Assembly: GCA_037133015.1 (NCBI GenBank)
Contig: JBAXOX010000011.1
Span: forward strand, 4,479 to 68,478
Origin: Acidobacteriota bacterium
Lineage (GTDB): Bacteria > Acidobacteriota > Vicinamibacteria > Vicinamibacterales > JAKQTR01
Direction of reading: 5' to 3'
DNA: 64,000 nucleotides
Shown: positions 4,360 to 59,503 of the stretch, one piece after another
How the letters are laid out: each line of letters starts with the position of its first letter
Numbering within the stretch: position 1 is the stretch's first letter
Translations under genes and position numbers: made by a program
Notes under the pieces: model-generated
What the model was told of the DNA's origin: nothing
The model's database searches: none
The model's input: the letters and a program-made list of their open reading frames with translations, nothing else

Positions 4360-4758
4360 TCACCACACGGTCTGGACGTGCGCGTACGACTTGAGCTTGC
4401 CGTCCTTGCTCACGAGCGCCGCATGGTGATGGCGTGCGGTGGCCACGATGATCTGATCGGCGGGATCGCCGTGGAAGGGCTGCGGCAGGTCGCAACTCTC
4501 GATCAGAATGGCCGGCGTGAGTTCCAACAGCGACAAACCCGGAAGCGCCGTGGCGCGATCGATCCAGTCGCGCAGGGGCCGGTCGAAAACCAACTGTTGC
4601 TTCTCGACCTTCTTGGCCACTTCCCAGATGGAGATCATTGAGATCGCGACGCCGCCGCCACGAGCCGCGCGCTGAATGATCTGCGCCGCGCGACGTGACA
4701 GGCGGCGATCCTCGGTCGCCCACCACACCCAGGCGTGCGTATCAAGGACGGTCGTCAT
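4360..4758 (-). CDS. vapC: PIN-domain ribonuclease toxin (VapC-like), second copy
   Basis: ATG at 4758 (MTTVLDTHAWVWW). It shares the motif set of the first PIN gene (LDTH, SIWEVAKK, DPADQIIVATA). It overlaps the upstream antitoxin stop by 17 nt. The track start at 4800 is probably too long. Confidence 0.8.
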   Translation of the reverse strand: MTTVLDTHAWVWWATEDRRLSRRAAQIIQRAARGGGVAISMISIWEVAKKVEKQQLVFDRPLRDWIDRATALPGLSLLELTPAILIESCDLPQPFHGDPADQIIVATARHHHAALVSKDGKLKSYAHVQTVW

Positions 4759-4969
4759 CCCAGGCCTCGCCGGTGCCGAACGGATTGCCGTGTTCTCCAA
4801 GCAGACTGCCGGCTAACGTGCCGGCGTTCTTGTCGGGGTTGGTAAACGGCACGACGGTGGCGACGGGGCGCCCTCGTTTGGTGACGACCACCGGCGTCCG
4901 CGTGGCTGCGACTCGATCGAGCACCTTCAGGCACTGGTCCTTGAATGCGCCGGCTGCCATGGTGACCAT
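4742..4969 (-). CDS. Type II antitoxin, Phd/YefM family, second copy
   Basis: 75-aa ORF. GAFKDQCLKVLDRVAATRTPVVVTKRGRPVATVVP parallels the first antitoxin, and it lies directly upstream of the PIN gene. Confidence 0.75.
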   Translation of the reverse strand: MVTMAAGAFKDQCLKVLDRVAATRTPVVVTKRGRPVATVVPFTNPDKNAGTLAGSLLGEHGNPFGTGEAWDDDRP

Positions 4970-5185: not shown

Positions 5186-5317
5186 CCGCTCACTCCACTC
5201 AATTGGGCGATGCCGTGGTTCTGACTCGTGGCGACCGCTGATCGATACACACGTCGGTTCCAATCGAGTCCGCGAACCGGTCGGCTTGGGTCTTTCAGCA
5301 CTCGGGGAGCGTGAGTG

Positions 5318-5452
5318 ATGAGTCTGGCACCTGGGATGCGCTTCGGCCCGTATGAGATCGTCGCCCCGCTCGCAGTGGGACTTCGCCGTAGCTCGAGGAG
5401 AGCCGGAGACGAGCGCAGGCGGGCCGTCGCCGACGTGAGAGTCCGCGCATGA
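5318..5452 (+). CDS. 44-codon upstream ORF mimicking a kinase N-terminus, ATGA-coupled to the kinase
   Basis: Translates as MSLAPGMRFGPYEIVAPLAVGLRRSSRRAGDERRRAVADVRVRA. The first 18 aa match the true N-terminus of the kinase at 55117 (MSLAPGTRLGPYDIVSAI) at 12 of 18 positions. A GGGGAG sits 9 nt upstream of the ATG. The stop TGA (5450-5452) overlaps the kinase ATG (5449-5451). A homologous uORF lies at 59303-59440. It is below the track's ORF size cutoff. Confidence 0.5.
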   Translation: MSLAPGMRFGPYEIVAPLAVGLRRSSRRAGDERRRAVADVRVRA

Positions 5453-8193
5453 TCGGACGGCTGCTTGGTTCGTACCGCGTCCTGTCGAAGGTCGGCGAAG
5501 GCGGGATGGGCGAGGTCTACCGCGCTCGCGATTCGAAACTGAATCGCGACGTGGCGATCAAGATCTTGCCTGAGGCATTTGCCGCCGACCCGGAGCGCCG
5601 GGCGCGGTTCGCGCGTGAGGCGCAGGTGCTTGCCGCCCTCAATCATCCGCACATCGCGGCCATCTACGCCGTCGAAGAGGGTGGCATGCCCGCGCCGCTG
5701 TCGGCCGCCGGGCCAGCCGGGCCGTCGGCCCAGACACCGTTCCTCGTGATGGAGCTGGTCGAAGGCCCGACGCTCGATGCGCGCATCGCCGGCAGGCCCG
5801 TCCCGATCCCGGAAGCGCTGGCCATCGCCGCGCAGATTGCCGACGCGCTCGATGCGGCGCACGAAAAGGGGATCGTCCACCGCGACCTCAAGCCCGCCAA
5901 CATCAAGGTGCGCGACGACGGCACGGTGAAGGTGCTGGACTTTGGTCTCGCCAAAGCGCTCGGTGCGGAGGGGGCGAGCGCGACGGCGGATGCCATCAAC
6001 TCGCCGACGATGACCGCCATGGCGAGTCGGATGGGCGTGATCCTGGGCACCGCGGCCTACATGAGCCCGGAGCAGGCCCGGGGCCGGGCGGTCGACAAGC
6101 GGACCGATATCTGGGCGTTCGGGTGCGTGCTCTACGAAATGCTGACGGGGCAGCGGGCGTTTCCCGGCGAGGATGTGGCGGAGTTCATCGCGGCCGTGCT
6201 GACGCGCGAGCCGGACTGGATCCGGCTGCCCGCGGCGATGCCCCCGCGCATCGTCGACCTCCTGAGACGCTGCCTGAAGAAGGACCCGCGCGAGCGGCTG
6301 CGCGACATCGGTGACGCGCGGGCAGAGATCGCGGAGGCGCTGGCGGGGCCAGGCGCCCCGAACGGGCCATCCCCGACCGCTGTGCCCGCGTCGTCATCAC
6401 ACGCCGCTTCGCGTCGTCGCCCGATCGTGGTTGCCGGCATCCTGGCGTTGGCCGCCGGCGTCGCCCTTGGCGCGGGAGCCGTCCTGCTGAGCCGGCCTCG
6501 CGCGGAGGTGCCCTCGTCAGTACGGTCGGCGATGCTCTTGCCGTCGGCCGCGCCGATGCTCCGCGGTTCCACGCCGAGTCTCGCGATCTCGCGCGACGGC
6601 CGACGCCTGGTCTACGCGGCGCAGGAAGGGCCGTCCACGGCGCTCTTCGTCCGCGACCTCGACGGCCGCGTGGCGACCAGGGTGGCCGGCTCGGATGGGG
6701 GACACCTGCCCTTCTTCTCACCCGACGGGACGTGGGTTGGGTTCTGCACCGAGGACGGCCGGTTGCTGAAGCTGCCCGTGGTCGGGGGCAATCCGACATT
6801 GCTCGCGCCTGCCACCGATGTGCGGGGGGCGAGCTGGGGCGACGACGGCTGGATCGTGTTCGCCCGCGATGTGGCCGGGGGCCTCTACCGCGTGCGGGAG
6901 ACGGGCGGCGCCGTGGAGCCGCTGACCACCCCCGAATGGACCTCCGGGGAGAAGACCCACCGCTACCCCGACGTGCTGCCAGGGGCGGGCGCCATCATCT
7001 ACACGATCGGGGCCGCCGACCTTGTCTCCTACGCCGGCTCACGCGTCGTCGTGCGCGTGGTGAAGACCGGCGAGACGCGCACGCTCATCTCGGGCGGGAT
7101 GTGCGCCCGCTACGTGGCACCTGGGTTCCTGGTGTACGCCAGGACCGGGTCGCTGTGGGCGGTGGCGTTCGACGTCGAGCGGCTGATCGTGTCTGGCGAT
7201 CCCGTCGAGATCCTGCCGGACCTCGCCACGCGGGCCGGGTATGCCGTCGGCCACTTTGCCGTGTCTCGAAACGGGGTGCTCATCTACGCTGCCGGCGGAG
7301 AGCAGCCGATCGAGCGGAGGGTCGTGCGTGTCGACCGCCGCGGGCGGCCGGAACCGCTCATCTCGGAAAAGGGCGGCTATATAGAGGCCGTGCTCTCGCC
7401 AGACGGACGCTACGTGGCGTTCACTCCCGAAAGCGCCAACGATGCCATCTGGTCGTACGACACGAGTCGCGGGACCTCCGCGAGGTTGACGAGGGACTGG
7501 AACTGCGGAAGCCCGGCGTGGTCTCCGGACGGACTGCGCCTGTTCTTCAAGTGCAACAAGGAACGTGACTACTCGCACATGTTCACGATGAAGTCGGATC
7601 GCGGCCAGCTCGAACCGCTGCTCGACCAGCGCATCCAAAGTGTGGATGGACAGGTGCGCGGCGACACGCTCGCGTTTTCGACGTGGGACCCCGCGACCAA
7701 GGAAGACCTGTGGCTGCTGTCTGTGGCCAGTCGGCGGGTGCGGGTTTGGCTGAAGAGCCAGTTCAGTGAGGGGGCGCCGGCTCTTTCGCCCGACGGCCGG
7801 TGGCTCGCGTACGCGTCGGATGAATCCGGCCGTTGGGAAGTGTACGTGGCGCCCATCGACGATCGCGACCGACGCGTGCAGATTTCGTCGGGCGGCGGCC
7901 ACCAGGTGCGGTGGCACCCGAACGGCCGAGAACTCTTCTACACCAACGGCACGCGATTGATGTCGGTGACAGTGCAGGGCGCACCCGCGGGCGTACGCCC
8001 GGGCCAGCCGGCGTTGGTGTTCGAAGGAGGCCCGTACTACGTCGAACTGGGTGGCGGCCCGGTCTTCACCGTCGCGCCGGACGGTAATCACTTCGTCATG
8101 ATCGAGGATCCGCCCGCCGCCGCGCCTGCGACCGATCTGAACCTCGTGACCAACTGGACCACAGAACTCAGGCGCAAGCTCGGGGTGAAGTAG
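5449..8193 (+). CDS. Membrane Ser/Thr protein kinase with C-terminal TolB-like (PD40/WD40-like) beta-propeller
   Basis: Hanks kinase motifs: GEGGMGEVYRARD, VAIKIL, HRDLKPANI, DFGLAK, AYMSPEQ. One TM segment (IVVAGILALAAGVALGAGAVLL). The ~550-aa C-terminal part carries repeated FSPDG/LSPDG propeller motifs. Confidence 0.9.
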   Translation: MIGRLLGSYRVLSKVGEGGMGEVYRARDSKLNRDVAIKILPEAFAADPERRARFAREAQVLAALNHPHIAAIYAVEEGGMPAPLSAAGPAGPSAQTPFLVMELVEGPTLDARIAGRPVPIPEALAIAAQIADALDAAHEKGIVHRDLKPANIKVRDDGTVKVLDFGLAKALGAEGASATADAINSPTMTAMASRMGVILGTAAYMSPEQARGRAVDKRTDIWAFGCVLYEMLTGQRAFPGEDVAEFIAAVLTREPDWIRLPAAMPPRIVDLLRRCLKKDPRERLRDIGDARAEIAEALAGPGAPNGPSPTAVPASSSHAASRRRPIVVAGILALAAGVALGAGAVLLSRPRAEVPSSVRSAMLLPSAAPMLRGSTPSLAISRDGRRLVYAAQEGPSTALFVRDLDGRVATRVAGSDGGHLPFFSPDGTWVGFCTEDGRLLKLPVVGGNPTLLAPATDVRGASWGDDGWIVFARDVAGGLYRVRETGGAVEPLTTPEWTSGEKTHRYPDVLPGAGAIIYTIGAADLVSYAGSRVVVRVVKTGETRTLISGGMCARYVAPGFLVYARTGSLWAVAFDVERLIVSGDPVEILPDLATRAGYAVGHFAVSRNGVLIYAAGGEQPIERRVVRVDRRGRPEPLISEKGGYIEAVLSPDGRYVAFTPESANDAIWSYDTSRGTSARLTRDWNCGSPAWSPDGLRLFFKCNKERDYSHMFTMKSDRGQLEPLLDQRIQSVDGQVRGDTLAFSTWDPATKEDLWLLSVASRRVRVWLKSQFSEGAPALSPDGRWLAYASDESGRWEVYVAPIDDRDRRVQISSGGGHQVRWHPNGRELFYTNGTRLMSVTVQGAPAGVRPGQPALVFEGGPYYVELGGGPVFTVAPDGNHFVMIEDPPAAAPATDLNLVTNWTTELRRKLGVK

Positions 8194-52456: not shown

Positions 52457-55117
52457 CTACTTCAGACCCTTGATCACATACAGCTGGCTGGCGTCCCTGT
52501 TGTAGCCGTAGGCGGTCGCGCCGCTGGGAGACACGATGAGGTTGCTCAGGCCGCTGACCAGCGACTTGAGCGGATGGACCGTCTTCCAGGCGGATCGGCG
52601 ACCGGATGCGACGTCCAGTCGGTCGATCTTGCCCTCGACCAACTGTCGCTGGTAGACAAACAGCGACTGCCCGTCCGCGCTCCAGCCGGCCACGTTATCG
52701 CCGTCCAGCGTACCCGCCACCGGATGGCAGACCGGCTTGGTGATCGTGCATGTCACGACCTTTCCGGCCGCGTCCACCGCGACGATGCGCGACCCGTCCG
52801 GCGAGATCAGATTCGTTCCCATGACGGGCAGTGTCACACCGCCCGGCAGCAGCGTTGTTATCTGGCGGCCGTCCGCCGACAGAATGAAGACCGATGGCCT
52901 GGACCCGGGGCGCGTGGCTTGAATCACCAGCCGCCCATCGGGAAGCCAGCCCCCCCATGAGACCACCTCGACCGGGCCCATGTCGACGATCTGCGGTTGC
53001 CCGGTGCCGGTGGGCACGATCGAGAGCTTCGGCGGTGTCTGCAGCGATCGAACCAGCGCCTTCTTGCCGTCCGGAGACAGTCCCACGCCCGACCCGTCCG
53101 CAATCCGGACAGGCTGCGCCTCCTTCGGCTGCCACGCGTAGACAGACCCTAGAAATCCGCCGCTGTCGCCACTCCCGTCGAATAGAAGCGTGTGGCTCGT
53201 CGAGAACGCAGTCAGCGTGGCCGACTCTCGCCACGACCGATCGAGAGGCGTCGGATCGGATCCCTCGACCACTTCAATGCGAGAGCTGATGCGATCGAAC
53301 GACACGAGGGCGTCGCCCTCGGCCGAGATGTCGTGCAGTGTGATCGCGCCCGGCGCACGAAACACCGGGCGCTGGTGTCCGGCAAGGTCCAGGCTGAAGA
53401 TCGTGGTCTGTCTTCCCGAGGTCTCTGTTGCCGCAAACCAGACCTCGTTCGACGGCGTCCAGGCGAGCGCCCACCAGTCGAAGAACGGCGAGCTTTGGGT
53501 GACCAGTGTCCCGGACCGGTCGACGATGTTCACTCTGTACGCAGAGGCCACGTGGAGGTCGAAGTAGGCCACGTGGGCTCCTGACGGGGAGACTCGCGGC
53601 GCCGCGTAGATGCTCATGCCTTCCGATGTTCGGCCAGCGGTGACAGGCACCTCGGCCAGCACGTGCCCGACCGGGTACTCCAGCGCCTGGCTGTGCGCAT
53701 CGTCGCGAACCACAGCCACCGTGTTGTTGGGACCGAAGTCGGCGAACCTCACCCTCTCCAGTTCTGGGCGTCTGGCGCCACCGGTGAGCGAGCCCTTTGC
53801 CAACGTCCCAATCCGCCAGTAGGGATTGCCGGCGGAGACGGCGGATTCGTTGAGAATGGCGAGTTCTCCCGAGCGCGAGACCCCAAGCAGGTCGGCTCCC
53901 GGAAATCCGAGCGACCGGTATTCGGAGCTGTCGACGCTGGTGAGGTACACGCCGCGCGGCTGTCGTTCCCAGTCGGCGCTGTAGACGATGGTGCGGCCGT
54001 CGGCCGCAAAGCGTGCGGCAAAGACGAACCCGTCCTCGAAGGACACGGGTTTGAAGGTGAGGTCAGCGGCCCCCGCCGATTTCGGTGCAGACGCGCCGCG
54101 GCCCAGATACCCGGCGCTCGCGCCGAGGACGAGGGCGGCGACAACAGCCGACGCGATGAGGAGACGCGCCCGCGGGCGCCGCGCGGACCCGACCACCGCC
54201 GCACCGCTGAGGGCGGTGCCGGACGCCGATCCAGACAGCGCCTCGAGCGCAAACGCGATGTCGCGCGCGTTCTGAAAACGCTCGTTTACGTTCTTCTCCA
54301 GACAGTGCCGAATGATGCGATCGAGGGCGGGCGACAGATCCGGCCGCGAGCCGACCAGTTCCGGCGGGTCGAGGGTCAGGATTGCCGTCATCGTGTCGGC
54401 CGCCGTGTCGCGCTGATACGCGCGCTGGCCGCTCACCATTTCGTAGAGCACCGCACCCAACGCAAACAGATCGGCGCGCGCATCGACGGCCTGACCGCGA
54501 ACCTGCTCGGGCGCCATGTAGCCGACGGTGCCCAACACGGAGCCGGGATCGGTGGCGGCCATCGTCTGCATACCGCCCGAGTTCTCGGCCGCTGTCGCGT
54601 GTCGCGCGAGACCGAAATCGAGGATCTTCACCTGCCCGTCGTCGAGCAGGAAGATATTCTCCGGCTTGAGGTCGCGATGGACGATGAGCTTGCCGTGCGC
54701 GGCCCCGAGGCCTCGCGCGATCTGCACGGCGATGTCGACCGCTTTGCGAACCGGTAGCGCGCCGCCGGACAATCGTTCCCGCAGCGTCTGTCCCGCGAGC
54801 AACTCCATGACGATGTAGACCGCGGCCTGGCCGGGGCCGGCCTGCCCCAAGCCACCAGAAGAGGTCTCAGGTTCGTGGAGGCCCGTGTCGAAGATGGCGA
54901 TAACGTTGGGATGCGACAGGGCGGCAACCGCCTGCGCTTCGCGTTCGAACCGTGCCCGCCGGCCAGGATCGTCAGCGAACGAAAGCGGCAGGACTTTAAT
55001 CGCGACGTCGCGGCCAAGGCGCGGGTCTTTCGCCTTGTACACCTCTCCCATCCCGCCGGCACCGATGGCAGAGACGATGTCGTACGGGCCGAGTCTGGTT
55101 CCTGGCGCGAGGCTCAT
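52457..55117 (-). CDS. Membrane Ser/Thr protein kinase with TolB-like beta-propeller (paralog 2)
   Basis: ATG at 55117 (MSLAPGTRLGPYDIV) with AGGAG 7 nt upstream. Kinase motifs GAGGMGEVYKAKD, VAIKVL, HRDLKPENI, DFGLAR, GYMAPEQ. One TM segment (LLIASAVVAALVLGASAGYL). The C-terminal region has propeller repeats (SPDG..). Confidence 0.9.
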   Translation of the reverse strand: MSLAPGTRLGPYDIVSAIGAGGMGEVYKAKDPRLGRDVAIKVLPLSFADDPGRRARFEREAQAVAALSHPNVIAIFDTGLHEPETSSGGLGQAGPGQAAVYIVMELLAGQTLRERLSGGALPVRKAVDIAVQIARGLGAAHGKLIVHRDLKPENIFLLDDGQVKILDFGLARHATAAENSGGMQTMAATDPGSVLGTVGYMAPEQVRGQAVDARADLFALGAVLYEMVSGQRAYQRDTAADTMTAILTLDPPELVGSRPDLSPALDRIIRHCLEKNVNERFQNARDIAFALEALSGSASGTALSGAAVVGSARRPRARLLIASAVVAALVLGASAGYLGRGASAPKSAGAADLTFKPVSFEDGFVFAARFAADGRTIVYSADWERQPRGVYLTSVDSSEYRSLGFPGADLLGVSRSGELAILNESAVSAGNPYWRIGTLAKGSLTGGARRPELERVRFADFGPNNTVAVVRDDAHSQALEYPVGHVLAEVPVTAGRTSEGMSIYAAPRVSPSGAHVAYFDLHVASAYRVNIVDRSGTLVTQSSPFFDWWALAWTPSNEVWFAATETSGRQTTIFSLDLAGHQRPVFRAPGAITLHDISAEGDALVSFDRISSRIEVVEGSDPTPLDRSWRESATLTAFSTSHTLLFDGSGDSGGFLGSVYAWQPKEAQPVRIADGSGVGLSPDGKKALVRSLQTPPKLSIVPTGTGQPQIVDMGPVEVVSWGGWLPDGRLVIQATRPGSRPSVFILSADGRQITTLLPGGVTLPVMGTNLISPDGSRIVAVDAAGKVVTCTITKPVCHPVAGTLDGDNVAGWSADGQSLFVYQRQLVEGKIDRLDVASGRRSAWKTVHPLKSLVSGLSNLIVSPSGATAYGYNRDASQLYVIKGLK

Positions 55118-55289
55118 CGAGCACTCCTGCCCGACGTCACCGGGCACCTGATTCGTAGGTACGCGACCTCACGTGCACCGAGACGACTGCCGGGGGCAAT
55201 CCATGTAGGGAAACCTGACGGTCATTATAGCCGTGTTAGCGCGGTATCATGATATACATTTGGTTGTACTGTATGTATATTACGAAAGC

Positions 55290-56570: not shown

Positions 56571-59306
56571 CTACTTCTGCCCCGCCGCCAGCCAGTTGAC
56601 GACGACGGTGATGAAGGAGGAACTCCGGCGCTGTTCAAGCACTTTGACGAGAAATCGATTGCCGTCCTTGGCGACGGCGTACTGACGATGGTTGTTGCCC
56701 GTGCCGGTGCCGGAGTAAACAGCGCCGGTGGGAAAGAGCGCCTTGGGCACGCCGGCCTCGAAGTCCTTCGCCGTGGAGACGCTCGCCGACGTCAATGTGC
56801 CGTCCAATGCGAGAAAGAATAACTCTTTGCCGTCGTCCCGCCACATCGGCAACGTGCCGCCGTCGCGCGACACCATGTAACTGCCGCCCGCGGCGGGAAA
56901 CGGCCGGACGTAGACCTCGGGGCGGCGGGATTCGTTCGAGTCGTACGCGATCCAGCGCCCGTCCGGCGAGAATGCTGCGTTGTCCTCGTCGTACGGCGTC
57001 CGCAGGAAGAGCACGGGTTTCGTGTCGCCGGAGAGCGGAAGCAACCACAGGTCGAAGCCCGTTGCGGTGGCCTGATCGCTGTACGCGAGCAAGCGCCCGT
57101 CGCGCGACCAGTCCGTCACGTAGTTCGGCGTATCCGACTTCAACGCCAGTTTCTCCGGGCTGCTTTGGTTTGCCGGCCTGATGAAGATGTTCGCCGGACC
57201 ACCTCGATTCGACACAAACGCAATCTGAGAGCCATCGGGTGACCAGACGGGCCCGAAATCGGCTGCCGGATCGAACGTGAAGCGCGAGGGCGCGGCGGCA
57301 CGCGCGAGGTCGATCAGCCAGACGTCGAGGTTGCCCGGCGACCCGGTCAGCAGCCCCACGGCCACGCGGCGCTCATCCGGACTGAGCGCAATGTTGTAGT
57401 AGGCCCCGATATCGCCTGCCGTGCCGAGCGGCGTGCCGGCCCGGTCGAGCCACGTGGGTCGTGCCGTTCGTCGTCCGCTGCCGGATACGTACGTCAGCAC
57501 GTTGCTCGTCGTCACCGAAAACGCGCCGTATGCCGTATCGTCGACGCCGACCTGCTCGGCCACCGACACCGCGTCCGCGGTCGTTTGCCGCGTGTTGACA
57601 TCGAACGACTGCGCCATCAGGCTCCCGCCGCGTGCGAACAACAGATGCCCCGCCGCGTACAGGCCATTCGAGTCCGATGGCGCGATGGCCACGCCCTCCT
57701 TCGAGTCGAGCGAGCCCGTGCGAATCTCGCCGGTCGTGCCGTCGCCGGTCCCGACGAAGTAGAGGAAATGGCGGCCGTCCGGCAGAAACGTCGCCCACCG
57801 GTGGGACGTCTCGCCTTTCGCGAGTGCCGTCACCGGCGCGGGTGCCCCGCCGGCCGACGTCACGCGCTGAAGCGGGCCGTTGAGGGTGGGGGAGAAGAGG
57901 ATGACGTTGTCGCGATTCCACGTGCCGCCCCGCTCGGACGGAGCATCGCAGAGCTCCGCCGGAGGTCCGCCGATCGCCGGCACCGTCTTCAACTTGTTGG
58001 CGCTGAAGAAGCCGATGGTTCGGCTATCGGGTGACCAGAACGGATGCGTGGCCCACTCGGTGCCCGGCAGGGGACGCGCCACGAGCGTCGAGAACGGCCG
58101 GATCCACAGCGCAAGGGCACCTCGCAGCGAGGCGACGAAGACAACCTGCCGTCCGTCGGGAGAGACGGCAAACTGCGGCGTCGGCCCGCCGAAGAGCGAA
58201 TTCTCCGGCGCGCCCATCGTGAACTGGATCGGATCCACCACCGGCGCGGCTTCGCGACGCTGCAGCACGATGATCGTCGCGGCGCCGACCAGCGCGACAC
58301 CGAGCACCGCGGCCGCGATCCACGCGAACCGCTCGCGGTTTCGCCGATGCGCGACGACGGGCGCGGGTACCCCGGCCGCGCTGCCACCATCGGCAATCCA
58401 CCGCAGTTGGAGCAGCAGGTCGTGTGCCGTCTGAAACCGGGCGTCGGGATCTTTTGCGAGGCATACACCGACGACGTGGTCGAGCGCGGGCGATGCCACC
58501 GGAGTCATCTGACTGACTGGCGGGGGCTGCTCCTTGAGAATCGCGCCGAGCAGGCCCGCTTGGCTCTTGCCGGCAAACGCGCGACGGCCTGTGAGCATCT
58601 CGAAGAGCACGGCGCCAAACGCGAAGATATCGGTGCGGGCGTCGGCTTCCTCGCCTTCGATCTGCTCGGGCGCCATGTACTGGAAGGTGCCGAGGATCGT
58701 GCCCTGGGCGGTGAGCGCCTGGCCGGGCGGCCTGGGTGACGTCGCGAGCGCGGTCGGTGCGGCCCCGGACACGGCGCCGGCCGGTCCGCTCTTCGCGAGG
58801 CCGAAGTCGAGCAACTTCGCCTGCGTGGCGTCCGATCGCGCGCCGCCCAATTTCACCAGCATGATGTTGCCGGGCTTCAGATCGCGATGCACGATGCCCT
58901 GTCGATGCGCCTTGTCGAGCGCGCTCGCGATCTCGGTTCCGATCTTGAGCGCGTCGGCCAGCGGCAGCGCGCCTCGCTCGAGCCGCGTGGCGAGCGTCTC
59001 GCCCTCGAGGTACTCCATCACGAGGTAGTCGACAACTGACCCGCCGGCTCCCTGGGGTGCGCCGGTCGACCCCACGTCGAACAGCGTGCAGATGTTCGGG
59101 TGATTCAGGGCCGAGATGCTTTTGGCTTCGCGCTCGAAACGGGCCTTGAAGTCGGGATCGGCGGCAAGCGCGGCGGGTAGAACCTTGATGGCGACCGTGC
59201 GATCAAGGCGCGTGTCGTTCGCCTTGTAGACCTCGCCCATTCCGCCGGCCCCGAGCGGTCCGAGGATTTCATAGGAGCCGAGCGTTGTTCCCGTGGCGAG
59301 CCTCAT
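56571..59306 (-). CDS. Membrane Ser/Thr protein kinase with TolB-like beta-propeller (paralog 3)
   Basis: GAGGMGEVYKAND, VAIKVL, HRDLKPGNI, DFGLAK, QYMAPEQ. TM segment FAWIAAAVLGVALVGAATIIVL. Propeller repeats WSPDS/LSPDE/WSPDG/FSPDG. The C-terminus reads ITVVVNWLAAGQK. Confidence 0.9.
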   Translation of the reverse strand: MRLATGTTLGSYEILGPLGAGGMGEVYKANDTRLDRTVAIKVLPAALAADPDFKARFEREAKSISALNHPNICTLFDVGSTGAPQGAGGSVVDYLVMEYLEGETLATRLERGALPLADALKIGTEIASALDKAHRQGIVHRDLKPGNIMLVKLGGARSDATQAKLLDFGLAKSGPAGAVSGAAPTALATSPRPPGQALTAQGTILGTFQYMAPEQIEGEEADARTDIFAFGAVLFEMLTGRRAFAGKSQAGLLGAILKEQPPPVSQMTPVASPALDHVVGVCLAKDPDARFQTAHDLLLQLRWIADGGSAAGVPAPVVAHRRNRERFAWIAAAVLGVALVGAATIIVLQRREAAPVVDPIQFTMGAPENSLFGGPTPQFAVSPDGRQVVFVASLRGALALWIRPFSTLVARPLPGTEWATHPFWSPDSRTIGFFSANKLKTVPAIGGPPAELCDAPSERGGTWNRDNVILFSPTLNGPLQRVTSAGGAPAPVTALAKGETSHRWATFLPDGRHFLYFVGTGDGTTGEIRTGSLDSKEGVAIAPSDSNGLYAAGHLLFARGGSLMAQSFDVNTRQTTADAVSVAEQVGVDDTAYGAFSVTTSNVLTYVSGSGRRTARPTWLDRAGTPLGTAGDIGAYYNIALSPDERRVAVGLLTGSPGNLDVWLIDLARAAAPSRFTFDPAADFGPVWSPDGSQIAFVSNRGGPANIFIRPANQSSPEKLALKSDTPNYVTDWSRDGRLLAYSDQATATGFDLWLLPLSGDTKPVLFLRTPYDEDNAAFSPDGRWIAYDSNESRRPEVYVRPFPAAGGSYMVSRDGGTLPMWRDDGKELFFLALDGTLTSASVSTAKDFEAGVPKALFPTGAVYSGTGTGNNHRQYAVAKDGNRFLVKVLEQRRSSSFITVVVNWLAAGQK

Positions 59307-59440
59307 CGCCCGCGACCCACAGGTGTCGTCGCTCGCCGTCGCTCGGAACGACTCTGAATCCGTCGACGTGTCGAGGGGCCTTCGCCCAGCTTGGCGAGGA
59401 TCTCGTACGGGCCGAGGCGAGCGCCGGGGACAAGGGGCAT
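59303..59440 (-). CDS. 45-codon upstream ORF mimicking a kinase N-terminus, ATGA-coupled to kinase paralog 3
   Basis: Hand reverse-complement gives MPLVPGARLGPYEILAKLGEGPSTRRRIQSRSERRRATTPVGRGR. It is colinear with the uORF at 5318 (12 of the first 18 aa identical, shared ERRRA in the Arg-rich tail). Its TGA overlaps the kinase ATG (TCAT at 59303-59306 on the plus strand). TATACT lies 14 nt upstream of its ATG. Confidence 0.5.
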   Translation of the reverse strand: MPLVPGARLGPYEILAKLGEGPSTRRRIQSRSERRRATTPVGRGR

Positions 59441-59503
59441 GTTGGGGTGGCAGGAGTATAGCACCGCAGCGAACGGCGCCCTGGCACGGGACTCAACGTC
59501 TCA

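Follow-up and report, generated by a model that had tools for sequence, protein, structure and literature searches.

Two protein kinase genes in a 64,000-nt stretch of an Acidobacteriota genome (contig JBAXOX010000011.1 of assembly GCA_037133015.1; the whole stretch is hereafter the window) are each preceded by a small upstream open reading frame (uORF) whose stop codon overlaps the kinase start. We suggest that these uORFs are the orphaned 5' ends of the kinase genes themselves, separated from the rest of the gene by an inserted cassette that contains a palindromic repeat and a replacement N-terminus, and that translation of the kinases may have remained coupled to that of the uORFs. To this explanation as a whole we assign a probability of about 0.65. 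The insertion and the resulting architecture can be seen directly in pairs of orthologous loci with empty and filled sites (L208/L209 and L083/L081; related loci are given L numbers throughout). For the window itself, we consider an insertion origin highly probable at the first kinase, K1, and somewhat favored at the third, K3, whereas translational coupling as the functional consequence, as judged from sequence, has about an even chance of being correct.

The first uORF (uORF1, 5318-5452, forward strand) opens with ATG at 5318, with a GTG at 5315 in the same frame, and runs for 44 codons (MSLAPGMRFGPYEIVAPLAVGLRRSSRRAGDERRRAVADVRVRA); its TGA (5450-5452) overlaps the ATG of K1 (5449-5451), forming ATGA at 5449-5452. 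The first 18 codons, which we call the stub (5318-5371; MSLAPGMRFGPYEIVAPL), match the ordinary N-terminus of the kinase family, and the same position in orthologs is either the true kinase start (L083) or again a stub (L081, L082). We interpret this segment as the orphaned original start and beta1 strand of the K1 gene, and the Shine-Dalgarno (SD)-like GGGGAG at 5304-5309 (forward strand, as read in the sequence), which precedes the uORF1 ATG by 8 nt, as its original ribosome-binding site. Most of the remaining tail is a decayed palindromic repeat core lying on the reverse strand (5374-5428), inverted relative to most kinase-associated copies. It is followed by the 3' part of the cassette (5423-5513, forward strand), which comprises a spacer, an SD-like GAGAG (5437-5441), the new ATG at 5449, and a replacement N-terminus (MIGRLLGSYRVLSKVGEGG) ending in GGCGAAGGCGG, the right arm of the repeat. 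K1 (5449-8193, forward strand) is a protein of 914 aa with a Pkinase domain and a PD40 beta-propeller region; it is identical to a protein from an Acidobacteriota metagenome-assembled genome (MAG) at NCBI (P0001), and K3 is likewise identical to an NCBI MAG protein.

The second uORF (uORF3, 59303-59440, reverse strand) starts with ATG at 59440 and encodes 45 codons (MPLVPGARLGPYEILAKLGEGPSTRRRIQSRSERRRATTPVGRGR), its TGA (59305-59303) overlapping the K3 ATG (59306-59304) in ATGA at 59306-59303. Its stub of 21 codons (59378-59440, reverse strand; MPLVPGARLGPYEILAKLGEG) is broken within the glycine-loop codons (GGCGAAGGC), and the junction falls after G-x-G-G, the same place as in hundreds of other copies; this stub, too, appears to be the orphaned original start of its kinase gene. 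In the tail (59307-59377, reverse strand), GAGCGACGGCGAG at 59344-59332 agrees with the repeat core GAGCTACGGCGAG at 12 of 13 positions and lies at the expected distance from the glycine-loop codons. The tail is probably a strongly decayed copy of the repeat found in uORF1, an assignment that rests more on architecture than on sequence. K3 (56571-59306, reverse strand; 911 aa, Pkinase and PD40) has a complete N-terminus of its own (MRLATGTTLGSYEILGPLGAGG), as does K1, and the intervening kinase K2 starts with MSLAPGTRLGPYDIV at 55117, with AGGAG 7 nt upstream of its ATG. The two uORFs with their ATGA overlaps, the complete N-termini of K1 and K3 and the direct start of K2 with its AGGAG had been recorded in a preliminary description of the window, along with the identity of 12 of the first 18 residues of uORF1 and uORF3 and the ERRRA common to both, and the rereading of the coordinates agrees with it on all of them. 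Its view that the two uORFs are homologous in architecture, with N-terminal parts derived from kinase 5' ends, also stands.

Evidence for insertion comes from orthologous loci. In the K1 clade, a promoter-like CATACAAT and one and the same ATG (MALQ..) are common to three loci (L081, L082 and L083). This ATG is the kinase start in L083, which has no uORF; in L081, whose kinase is 89% identical to that of L083, it opens a uORF of 13 codons ending in GTGA on the kinase start; and in L082 it opens one of 32 codons, also ending in GTGA. The window and L081 are syntenic, since the same VapBC pair precedes both K1 and its L081 ortholog. The orthologs of K3 are 62-76% identical to it, with varied N-termini. 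The closest (L208, 76%) has a plain N-terminus and an empty site, and another (L209, 71%) has a stub and an insert; its new N-terminus (MKTGD..) is a different one, and its uORF stops 64 nt early. The L208 and L209 kinases are 75% identical overall, and the L209 stub corresponds to the N-terminal 66 nt of L208 with six differences, all synonymous. When the two loci are aligned, about 150 extra nt stand in L209 directly after the G-x-G-G codons, and the sequence following the insertion point, ATGGGCGAGGTCTACAAGGCGAACGACACGCGCC, is identical in L208, L209 and K3. Both pairs, L208/L209 and L083/L081, therefore show an insert within a conserved gene that carries a substitute for the displaced end. 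An assembly artefact is unlikely, as the structure is seen again in independent assemblies, some of them with contigs of 0.4-1.1 Mb. In one further locus (L039, 680-1500), the kinase is apparently frameshifted soon after GGMGAVYQAS, which could reflect either a pseudogene or an error in long-read assembly.

These comparisons do not agree with the idea, put forward in the preliminary description, of one ancient partial duplication retained in two paralogs: identity between K1 and K3 is no more than 36%, and each has orthologs with and without a uORF. The homologous uORFs that it proposed to look for at orthologous loci are present in L081, L082 and L209 and missing from L083 and L208.

The inserted sequence proved to be a dispersed repeat. 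We observed that the uORF tails in the window are similar in DNA to those of L071 and of both kinases in L082, and a scan of metagenomes with the central hairpin as query (AGCTACGGCGRG..CGCCGWAG) returned at least 120 stretches. Among the matches listed, 102 oriented copies contained the left arm and the start of the hairpin, and only four of these lay within kinases; the others occur in many unrelated contexts, frequently with GTAG-tagged flanks. The general form of the repeat is CCGCCTYCGC, hairpin, GCTACGGCGAG..CTCGCCGWAGC, hairpin, GCGAAGGCGG, and canonical copies read GCTACGGCGAG-N3-4-CTCGCCGTAGC between the arms CCGCCTYCGC and GCGAAGGCGG. Many dispersed copies, together with hairpin symmetry and a GTAG/CTAC tag, are two marks of repeats of the repetitive extragenic palindromic (REP)/GTAG type, and the element has both. 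In the uORF frame the repeat is translated as PASAR or PPPLA, its left arm being read in two different frames, and then as ELRRGLA(E/V)A; the same E/V polymorphism (GAA/GTA) is found in coding and non-coding copies. The stretch GAG CTA CGG CGA GG gives ELRRG, and its K3 counterpart GAGCGACGGCGAGCG gives the homologous ERRRA. The peptide tail of the uORFs is thus a by-product of the repeat DNA sequence, and their resemblance to the kinase N-terminus, previously described as mimicry, is by descent. The common length, the Arg-rich tail and ERRRA, which had been taken for conserved peptide features, derive from the common inserted repeat.

Within the window, a model of the element alone (nhmmer; seven cassettes from other loci) has its best match at 5428-5374 on the reverse strand (E=8.9e-6, 21.8 bits), and it is because of this minus-strand match that we consider the core in the uORF1 tail to be inverted. 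This is the only significant copy of the repeat within the 64 kb; an earlier model of three sequences also matched the uORF1 tail alone in the window (E=0.04). No Rfam match was obtained for the window at gathering thresholds or for six related loci at E<=1, and neither uORF peptide matches a Pfam family. A general preference of the repeat for GGCGG-like targets was considered and rejected, because 96 of the 102 copies have no GGCGG in the 9 nt to their left; since generic copies do not lie beside GGCGG, the kinase-associated form is a special sub-lineage. Two side observations concern repeats inside genes. In L180 (~900-990), the same palindromic repeat is read in frame inside a non-kinase gene (..AKASRLRSPENKASYGEARRSAGG..), directly after GCGAAGGCG, in the manner of a Rickettsia palindromic element (RPE). 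In L069 (2680-3010) and L026 (5819-6400), kinase stubs are followed by a different repeat family, ..LRPFLRQG(R/G)Q(A/G)K.., and about 300 nt downstream of the L069 stub lies a complete kinase that starts with TTG and whose N-terminus is very similar. Other repeat types may split kinase 5' ends too.

What distinguishes the kinase-associated form is what it carries behind the repeat. The cassette is ~110-150 nt long and interrupts the kinase gene at its glycine-loop codons or close to them (G-x-G-G | M-G-E-V-Y). Besides the repeat it has GAGG-like purines, which precede a new start codon (ATG or GTG) by 7-9 nt, and a new beta1 strand; the latter finishes with GGCGAAGGCGG (G-E-G-G), glycine-loop codons that are identical to the right arm of the repeat. 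Since it brings an SD sequence, a start, a beta1 strand and a glycine loop, the kinase stays intact with a swapped N-terminus. Positions 61-151 of the cassette model match the window at 5423-5513 (forward strand, E=2.5e-9), where the K1 sequence aligns with L082p, L081 and L110m. The cassette is more conserved than its hosts: cassette-bearing kinases are mutually 31-52% identical, except for the L081/L082p pair (74%), and in 30-nt windows identity is 77-93% in the cassette versus 50-67% downstream. In L204, two tandem paralogs are 100% identical over a block of 170 nt lying between the glycine-loop codons and GEVYRA; their flanks are at 70-88% and their stubs differ. Two unrelated kinases in L082 (38% identical) carry each other's closest variant of the element (84%), and in L121 the host kinase has an FGE-sulfatase C-terminal region instead of PD40.

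In L207 (3501-3700), the stub is itself of the short MIGR.. type normally supplied by cassettes, which suggests a second cassette in a kinase whose N-terminus had already been replaced once. Between L110 (reverse strand) and L200, the element cores share 98% identity and the new N-terminus, like the codons after it, is nearly unchanged, but the stubs are unrelated (MPLSPGTRLGLYEIV.. versus MQTPKFVGQQLGSFEIL..); either the same cassette entered two genes with co-conversion downstream, or the stubs were exchanged by recombination at the glycine-loop codons. Two kinase calls that start at MGEVY (P0246 and P0252) were considered as candidate naked insertions and discarded, one being a truncated contig and the other a mis-called start.

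Homologous uORFs elsewhere, which the preliminary description had proposed to search for, are far more numerous than chance would allow. A profile built from six uORFs retrieved 836 called small proteins, mostly of 45-49 aa, with the junction after G-x-G-G in all of them. When 1.84 billion cluster representatives were searched exhaustively with a profile of 68 sequences, 118 matched at E<=1e-10; at E<=1e-3 there were 14,361 matches, a number that surely includes some to kinase N-termini alone. The top two representative matches, P0361 (3385 aa) and P0364 (2301 aa), were rejected as unrelated long serine-rich repetitive proteins; they contain 23-34 repeats of ..GAYEI.SSIG.GPAASIRSRIE.., which calls for caution about low-complexity matches within the count at E<=1e-3. 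Among matches spanning the whole profile, 165 of 183 (~90%) end within 4 residues of the same position, and 3 of 183 read in frame into the kinase. In every long contig examined that had been retrieved through such an ORF, there is a 4-nt overlap with a kinase start. Across 80 loci from species-representative genomes, about one of ~98 kinase starts carries a full cassette. The cassette is therefore widespread but a minority state, with two in the window and probably the remains of a third.

This candidate third stub precedes K2 (55114-55204, reverse strand). One frame, found by eye, reads ..WIAPGSRLGAREVAYLRIRCPVTSGRSAR and then a stop, its TGA overlapping the K2 ATG (55117). The ATG at 55204, formerly the start, no longer lies in this frame, and IAPGSRLGA.EVA resembles a kinase N-terminus. 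This is probably an older and more decayed stub, K2 now relying on its own AGGAG. A six-frame motif scan of the window found the N-termini of the three kinases and two stubs, those of uORF1 and uORF3. Upstream of K1, genes for a PIN (VapC-like) protein and an antitoxin lie divergently at 4360-4969 (reverse strand), and a strong sigma-70-like promoter at 5005-4976 (reverse strand) fits the antitoxin gene.

How the kinases are translated behind these stubs is suggested by the junctions. Ribosomes would load at the old initiation site of the kinase gene, translate the uORF through the element while opening its hairpins, terminate at the TGA that overlaps the new start (NTGA), and reinitiate on the kinase, so that kinase synthesis would stay coupled to the native translation signals of the gene. 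Such termination-reinitiation at ATGA was among the possibilities raised in the preliminary description, and is the best functional reading of the arrangement. In the window, the uORF stop overlaps the start of the downstream gene on the same strand at both loci (5449-5452 and 59306-59303). The uORF frame is -1/+2 relative to the kinase and ends at the kinase start: start-to-start distances in the K1 clade are 131 nt (K1), 95 nt (L082) and 38 nt (L081), and in other copies 134 or 140 nt, all equal to 2 mod 3. The successive deletions in the K1 clade were thus in frame and kept the overlap, which argues for coupling by termination-reinitiation. Of nine cassettes identified by DNA and not by their ORF, seven have NTGA on the start; in L121 the uORF ends 8 nt beyond it, and in L209 it stops early.

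The initiation signals differ between the old and new starts. GGGGAG upstream of uORF1 is a stronger SD sequence than the GAGAG before K1, and K3 has none. The earlier statement that K1 and K3 have no obvious SD sequence holds for K3 and has to be softened for K1, where GAGAG stands 7 nt before the ATG and aligns with the GAGG of fresher copies. There is no SD sequence before the uORF3 ATG either, which suggests a very short leader; a -10-like hexamer, TATACT (59455-59460, reverse strand), was read from the sequence 14 nt upstream of this ATG. TACAAT boxes in an analogous position, 9-15 nt before the stub ATG, occur in L081, L082, L083 and L121. A strict two-hexamer promoter scan made no call near the uORFs, including TATACT at 59460-59455, and a terminator scan found no terminator-like site near them. 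In tandem arrays of the K1/K3 family, consecutive full-length kinases are as a norm joined by ATGA. We observed arrays with frequent TGA/ATG (ATGA) overlaps in L001, L004, L005, L010, L011, L018, L029, L033, L035, L061, L065, L080 and L204, the last of which includes a chain of kinase, uORF and kinase linked throughout by 4-nt overlaps.

Several observations weigh against an inserted cassette with a coupled uORF, or against parts of this explanation. The element at K3 is barely recognizable: beyond the 12 of 13 core positions, the local match has E=0.074 on the leader alone and is not significant window-wide, and the downstream N-terminus is of the ordinary long type with GAGG, not GEGG. K3 may therefore have a different origin, such as an older cassette type or a deleted upstream tandem paralog. 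At K1, the inverted core would need an extra inversion or an independent insertion. The overlapping stop is missed in L209 and L121, and a few copies are in frame into the kinase, so the NTGA overlap is not obligatory; it could also be partly built in, because the new start is followed by A. Both window leaders fold no more stably than shuffled sequences (z=+0.75 and +0.76); for fresh cassettes the fold is modestly better than for shuffled ones (z=-0.8 to -1.2). The estimate of family size comes largely from ORF-based searches, which favor intact uORFs. No transposase or other mobility machinery was identified, although no genome-wide search for transposases was made. Finally, the element tails of uORF1 and uORF3 seem more decayed than the stubs before them, a difference that is not accounted for by neutrality alone; it could reflect a role of the peptide, constraint on the region of initiation, or conversion of the stubs by paralogous genes.

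The main alternative for function is that the uORF is a neutral scar. The cassette would have inserted in the same way, and the kinase would be translated independently from the SD sequence and start of the cassette, with the overlap and the open frame persisting from arrival and from the rarity of stops at 66% G+C. The base composition predicts ~0.023 stops per codon, at which a tail of 24 codons remains open with a probability of ~0.58, and fresh cassettes do have their own GAGG 7-9 nt before the start. The uORF is broken in L209 beside an intact kinase, and K2 appears to have lost its uORF and gained a strong AGGAG; the lack of excess RNA structure in the window leaders fits as well. A scar, however, would not be expected to keep its frame in the variants of 131, 134 and 140 nt and after large deletions that occurred in the K1 clade at least twice independently, nor to stop at the same place in 90% of whole-profile matches, and independent initiation agrees poorly with the missing SD sequence of K3 and the weak one of K1. 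We regard this alternative as unlikely, though it is the one that survives best.

A second alternative places the uORF, including its peptide, under selection, either as a cis-acting regulatory leader or as a beta1-strand-like, Arg-rich mimic peptide acting on the kinase. The large size of the family, its conserved length, the closeness of the K1 and K3 stubs to the kinase N-terminal consensus beside a decayed element, and the purely synonymous differences between the L209 stub and L208 could all be seen in this light, but the last is equally explained by recent insertion. Orthologs lack the uORF or have it truncated (13 or 32 codons, with the stub down to 6-7 codons). The tail, moreover, is a repeat conserved as DNA in non-coding copies too, with the same GAA/GTA polymorphism, its left arm is read in two frames, and in L081 it is largely deleted. 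A functional uORF peptide is for these reasons not supported, and neither is the action of an Arg-rich peptide on the kinase, as proposed in the preliminary description. The regulatory variant meets no terminator or attenuator at the uORFs and no Pfam or Rfam match, and an RNA switch was rejected, given leaders that fold no better than shuffles and the missing terminator. Selection on the peptide or leader as such appears quite improbable.

Least probable of all, and very improbable as a general account, is that the stub is the relic of a deleted upstream tandem paralog, whose glycine-loop codons (GGCGAAGGCGG) had microhomology with the right arm of a repeat lying between the genes, so that its body was deleted and the stub became fused to the repeat and the next kinase. 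The identity of those codons with the right arm would provide the microhomology, and tandem kinase arrays with ATGA overlaps are common; the ordinary full-length N-terminus of K3, the stubs without a following kinase (L026, L029 and L051), and the L110m/L200 pair, with a 98% identical element, almost the same new N-terminus and unrelated stubs, also agree with it. Against a deletion, stub and kinase body belong to the same orthologous gene in L208/L209 and L083/L081, and the adjacent paralogs of L204 carry identical cassettes with different stubs. The route may nevertheless apply to K3 or to the stubs without a following kinase. Three other readings were rejected: a programmed frameshift or bypass joining uORF and kinase, since the kinase N-terminus is already complete and a fusion would duplicate beta1; a tail that is a frameshifted or diverged copy of kinase residues 19-44 (matches at RA.D.R and V..V), since the tail proved to be the repeat; and a tail that is the C-terminal end of a preceding kinase (in L077 and L074, ELRR also lies close to the end of kinases), a likeness of four residues that the empty and filled sites contradict.

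Returning to the inserted cassette, we propose tentatively, and with slightly less than even confidence, that it is a non-autonomous mobile element. It would be a derivative of the palindromic repeat that captured a kinase 5' end (SD sequence, start and beta1), with the GGCGAAGGCGG codons as its right arm, and that homes into the glycine-loop codons of Hanks-type Ser/Thr kinases (of the PD40 type and at least one of the FGE-sulfatase type), spreading among paralogs and leaving the old start as a coupled uORF. Transposition and gene conversion between kinase paralogs via the flanking glycine-loop repeats are candidate modes of spread. The GGCG..GGCGG repeats that flank it could be a target duplication, the arm of the element itself, or homology used in recombination. 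The ~150-nt cassette encodes no protein, and no integrase is adjacent to K1 or K3.

Each part of the arrangement has known counterparts. Translationally coupled overlapping cistrons (ATGA/GTGA, in many bacterial operons) share the 4-nt stop/start overlap and the SD-like sequence inside the upstream frame; here, however, coupling is an inference and the upstream frame is not an independent protein but a 13-49-codon fragment of the former 5' end of the downstream gene plus the repeat. Leader peptides, attenuators and regulatory uORFs are likewise short co-oriented ORFs immediately upstream of a gene, whereas in our case there are no terminator or antiterminator hairpins, the peptide is not conserved as a peptide, and its presence varies among orthologs. 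Some integrating elements, among them e14 and phage 21 in icd and the phages and islands in tRNA genes, bring along a substitute for the gene end that they displace. As in those elements, insertion is made harmless by a replacement gene end and the displaced original end is left beside it as a pseudo-fragment. The icd/e14-like elements are, in contrast, of kilobase scale, have integrases and att sites and usually replace 3' ends, whereas the cassette has ~150 nt and no gene, replaces a 5' end and involves a translational restart; it resembles their logic but is not a member of that family.

Intragenic palindromic elements have reportedly been described in Rickettsia as RPEs (Ogata et al. 2000). 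REP/GTAG-tagged palindromic repeats are also known to include copies inside genes (Di Nocera et al. 2013, PMC3733652). Both are, like ours, short G+C-rich palindromic multi-copy elements with CTAC/GTAG-flanked stems, mostly intergenic and sometimes intragenic. RPEs and intragenic REPs, however, add in-frame segments to the host protein, whereas our element splits the gene and then provides a new SD sequence, start and N-terminal segment, and a sub-lineage of it is bound to a single codon position in a single protein family. In-frame translation as part of the host protein was not encountered for the window uORFs, and among relatives only in the three of 183 matches that read into the kinase. 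Stop-start coupling, intragenic palindromic repeats (PMC3733652) and inserts with a substitute gene end are thus individually known; in the literature, we found no description of a repeat-derived cassette at the glycine-loop codons of Ser/Thr kinases that replaces the 5' end and leaves a coupled stub uORF.

If our interpretation is correct, the large family of unannotated "hypothetical proteins" of 45-49 residues in soil metagenomes would be explained as by-products of a repeat cassette directed at a single codon position in a single protein family, and genome annotation would be affected in where kinase starts are called, in its spurious small ORFs and in its apparent pseudogenes. Simple reporter constructs would allow termination-reinitiation to be tested directly in a phylum that has been little studied. 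The cassette would also be a compact case, from bacteria, of an insertion that mends the gene into which it falls, through a replacement 5' end and a translational restart, and would bear on how selfish repeats persist inside coding regions. Each such insertion would be harmless by design and would at the same time reshuffle kinase N-termini and translation signals, and may in this way bear on the diversification of, and the exchange of 5' regions within, the very large kinase repertoires of Acidobacteriota.

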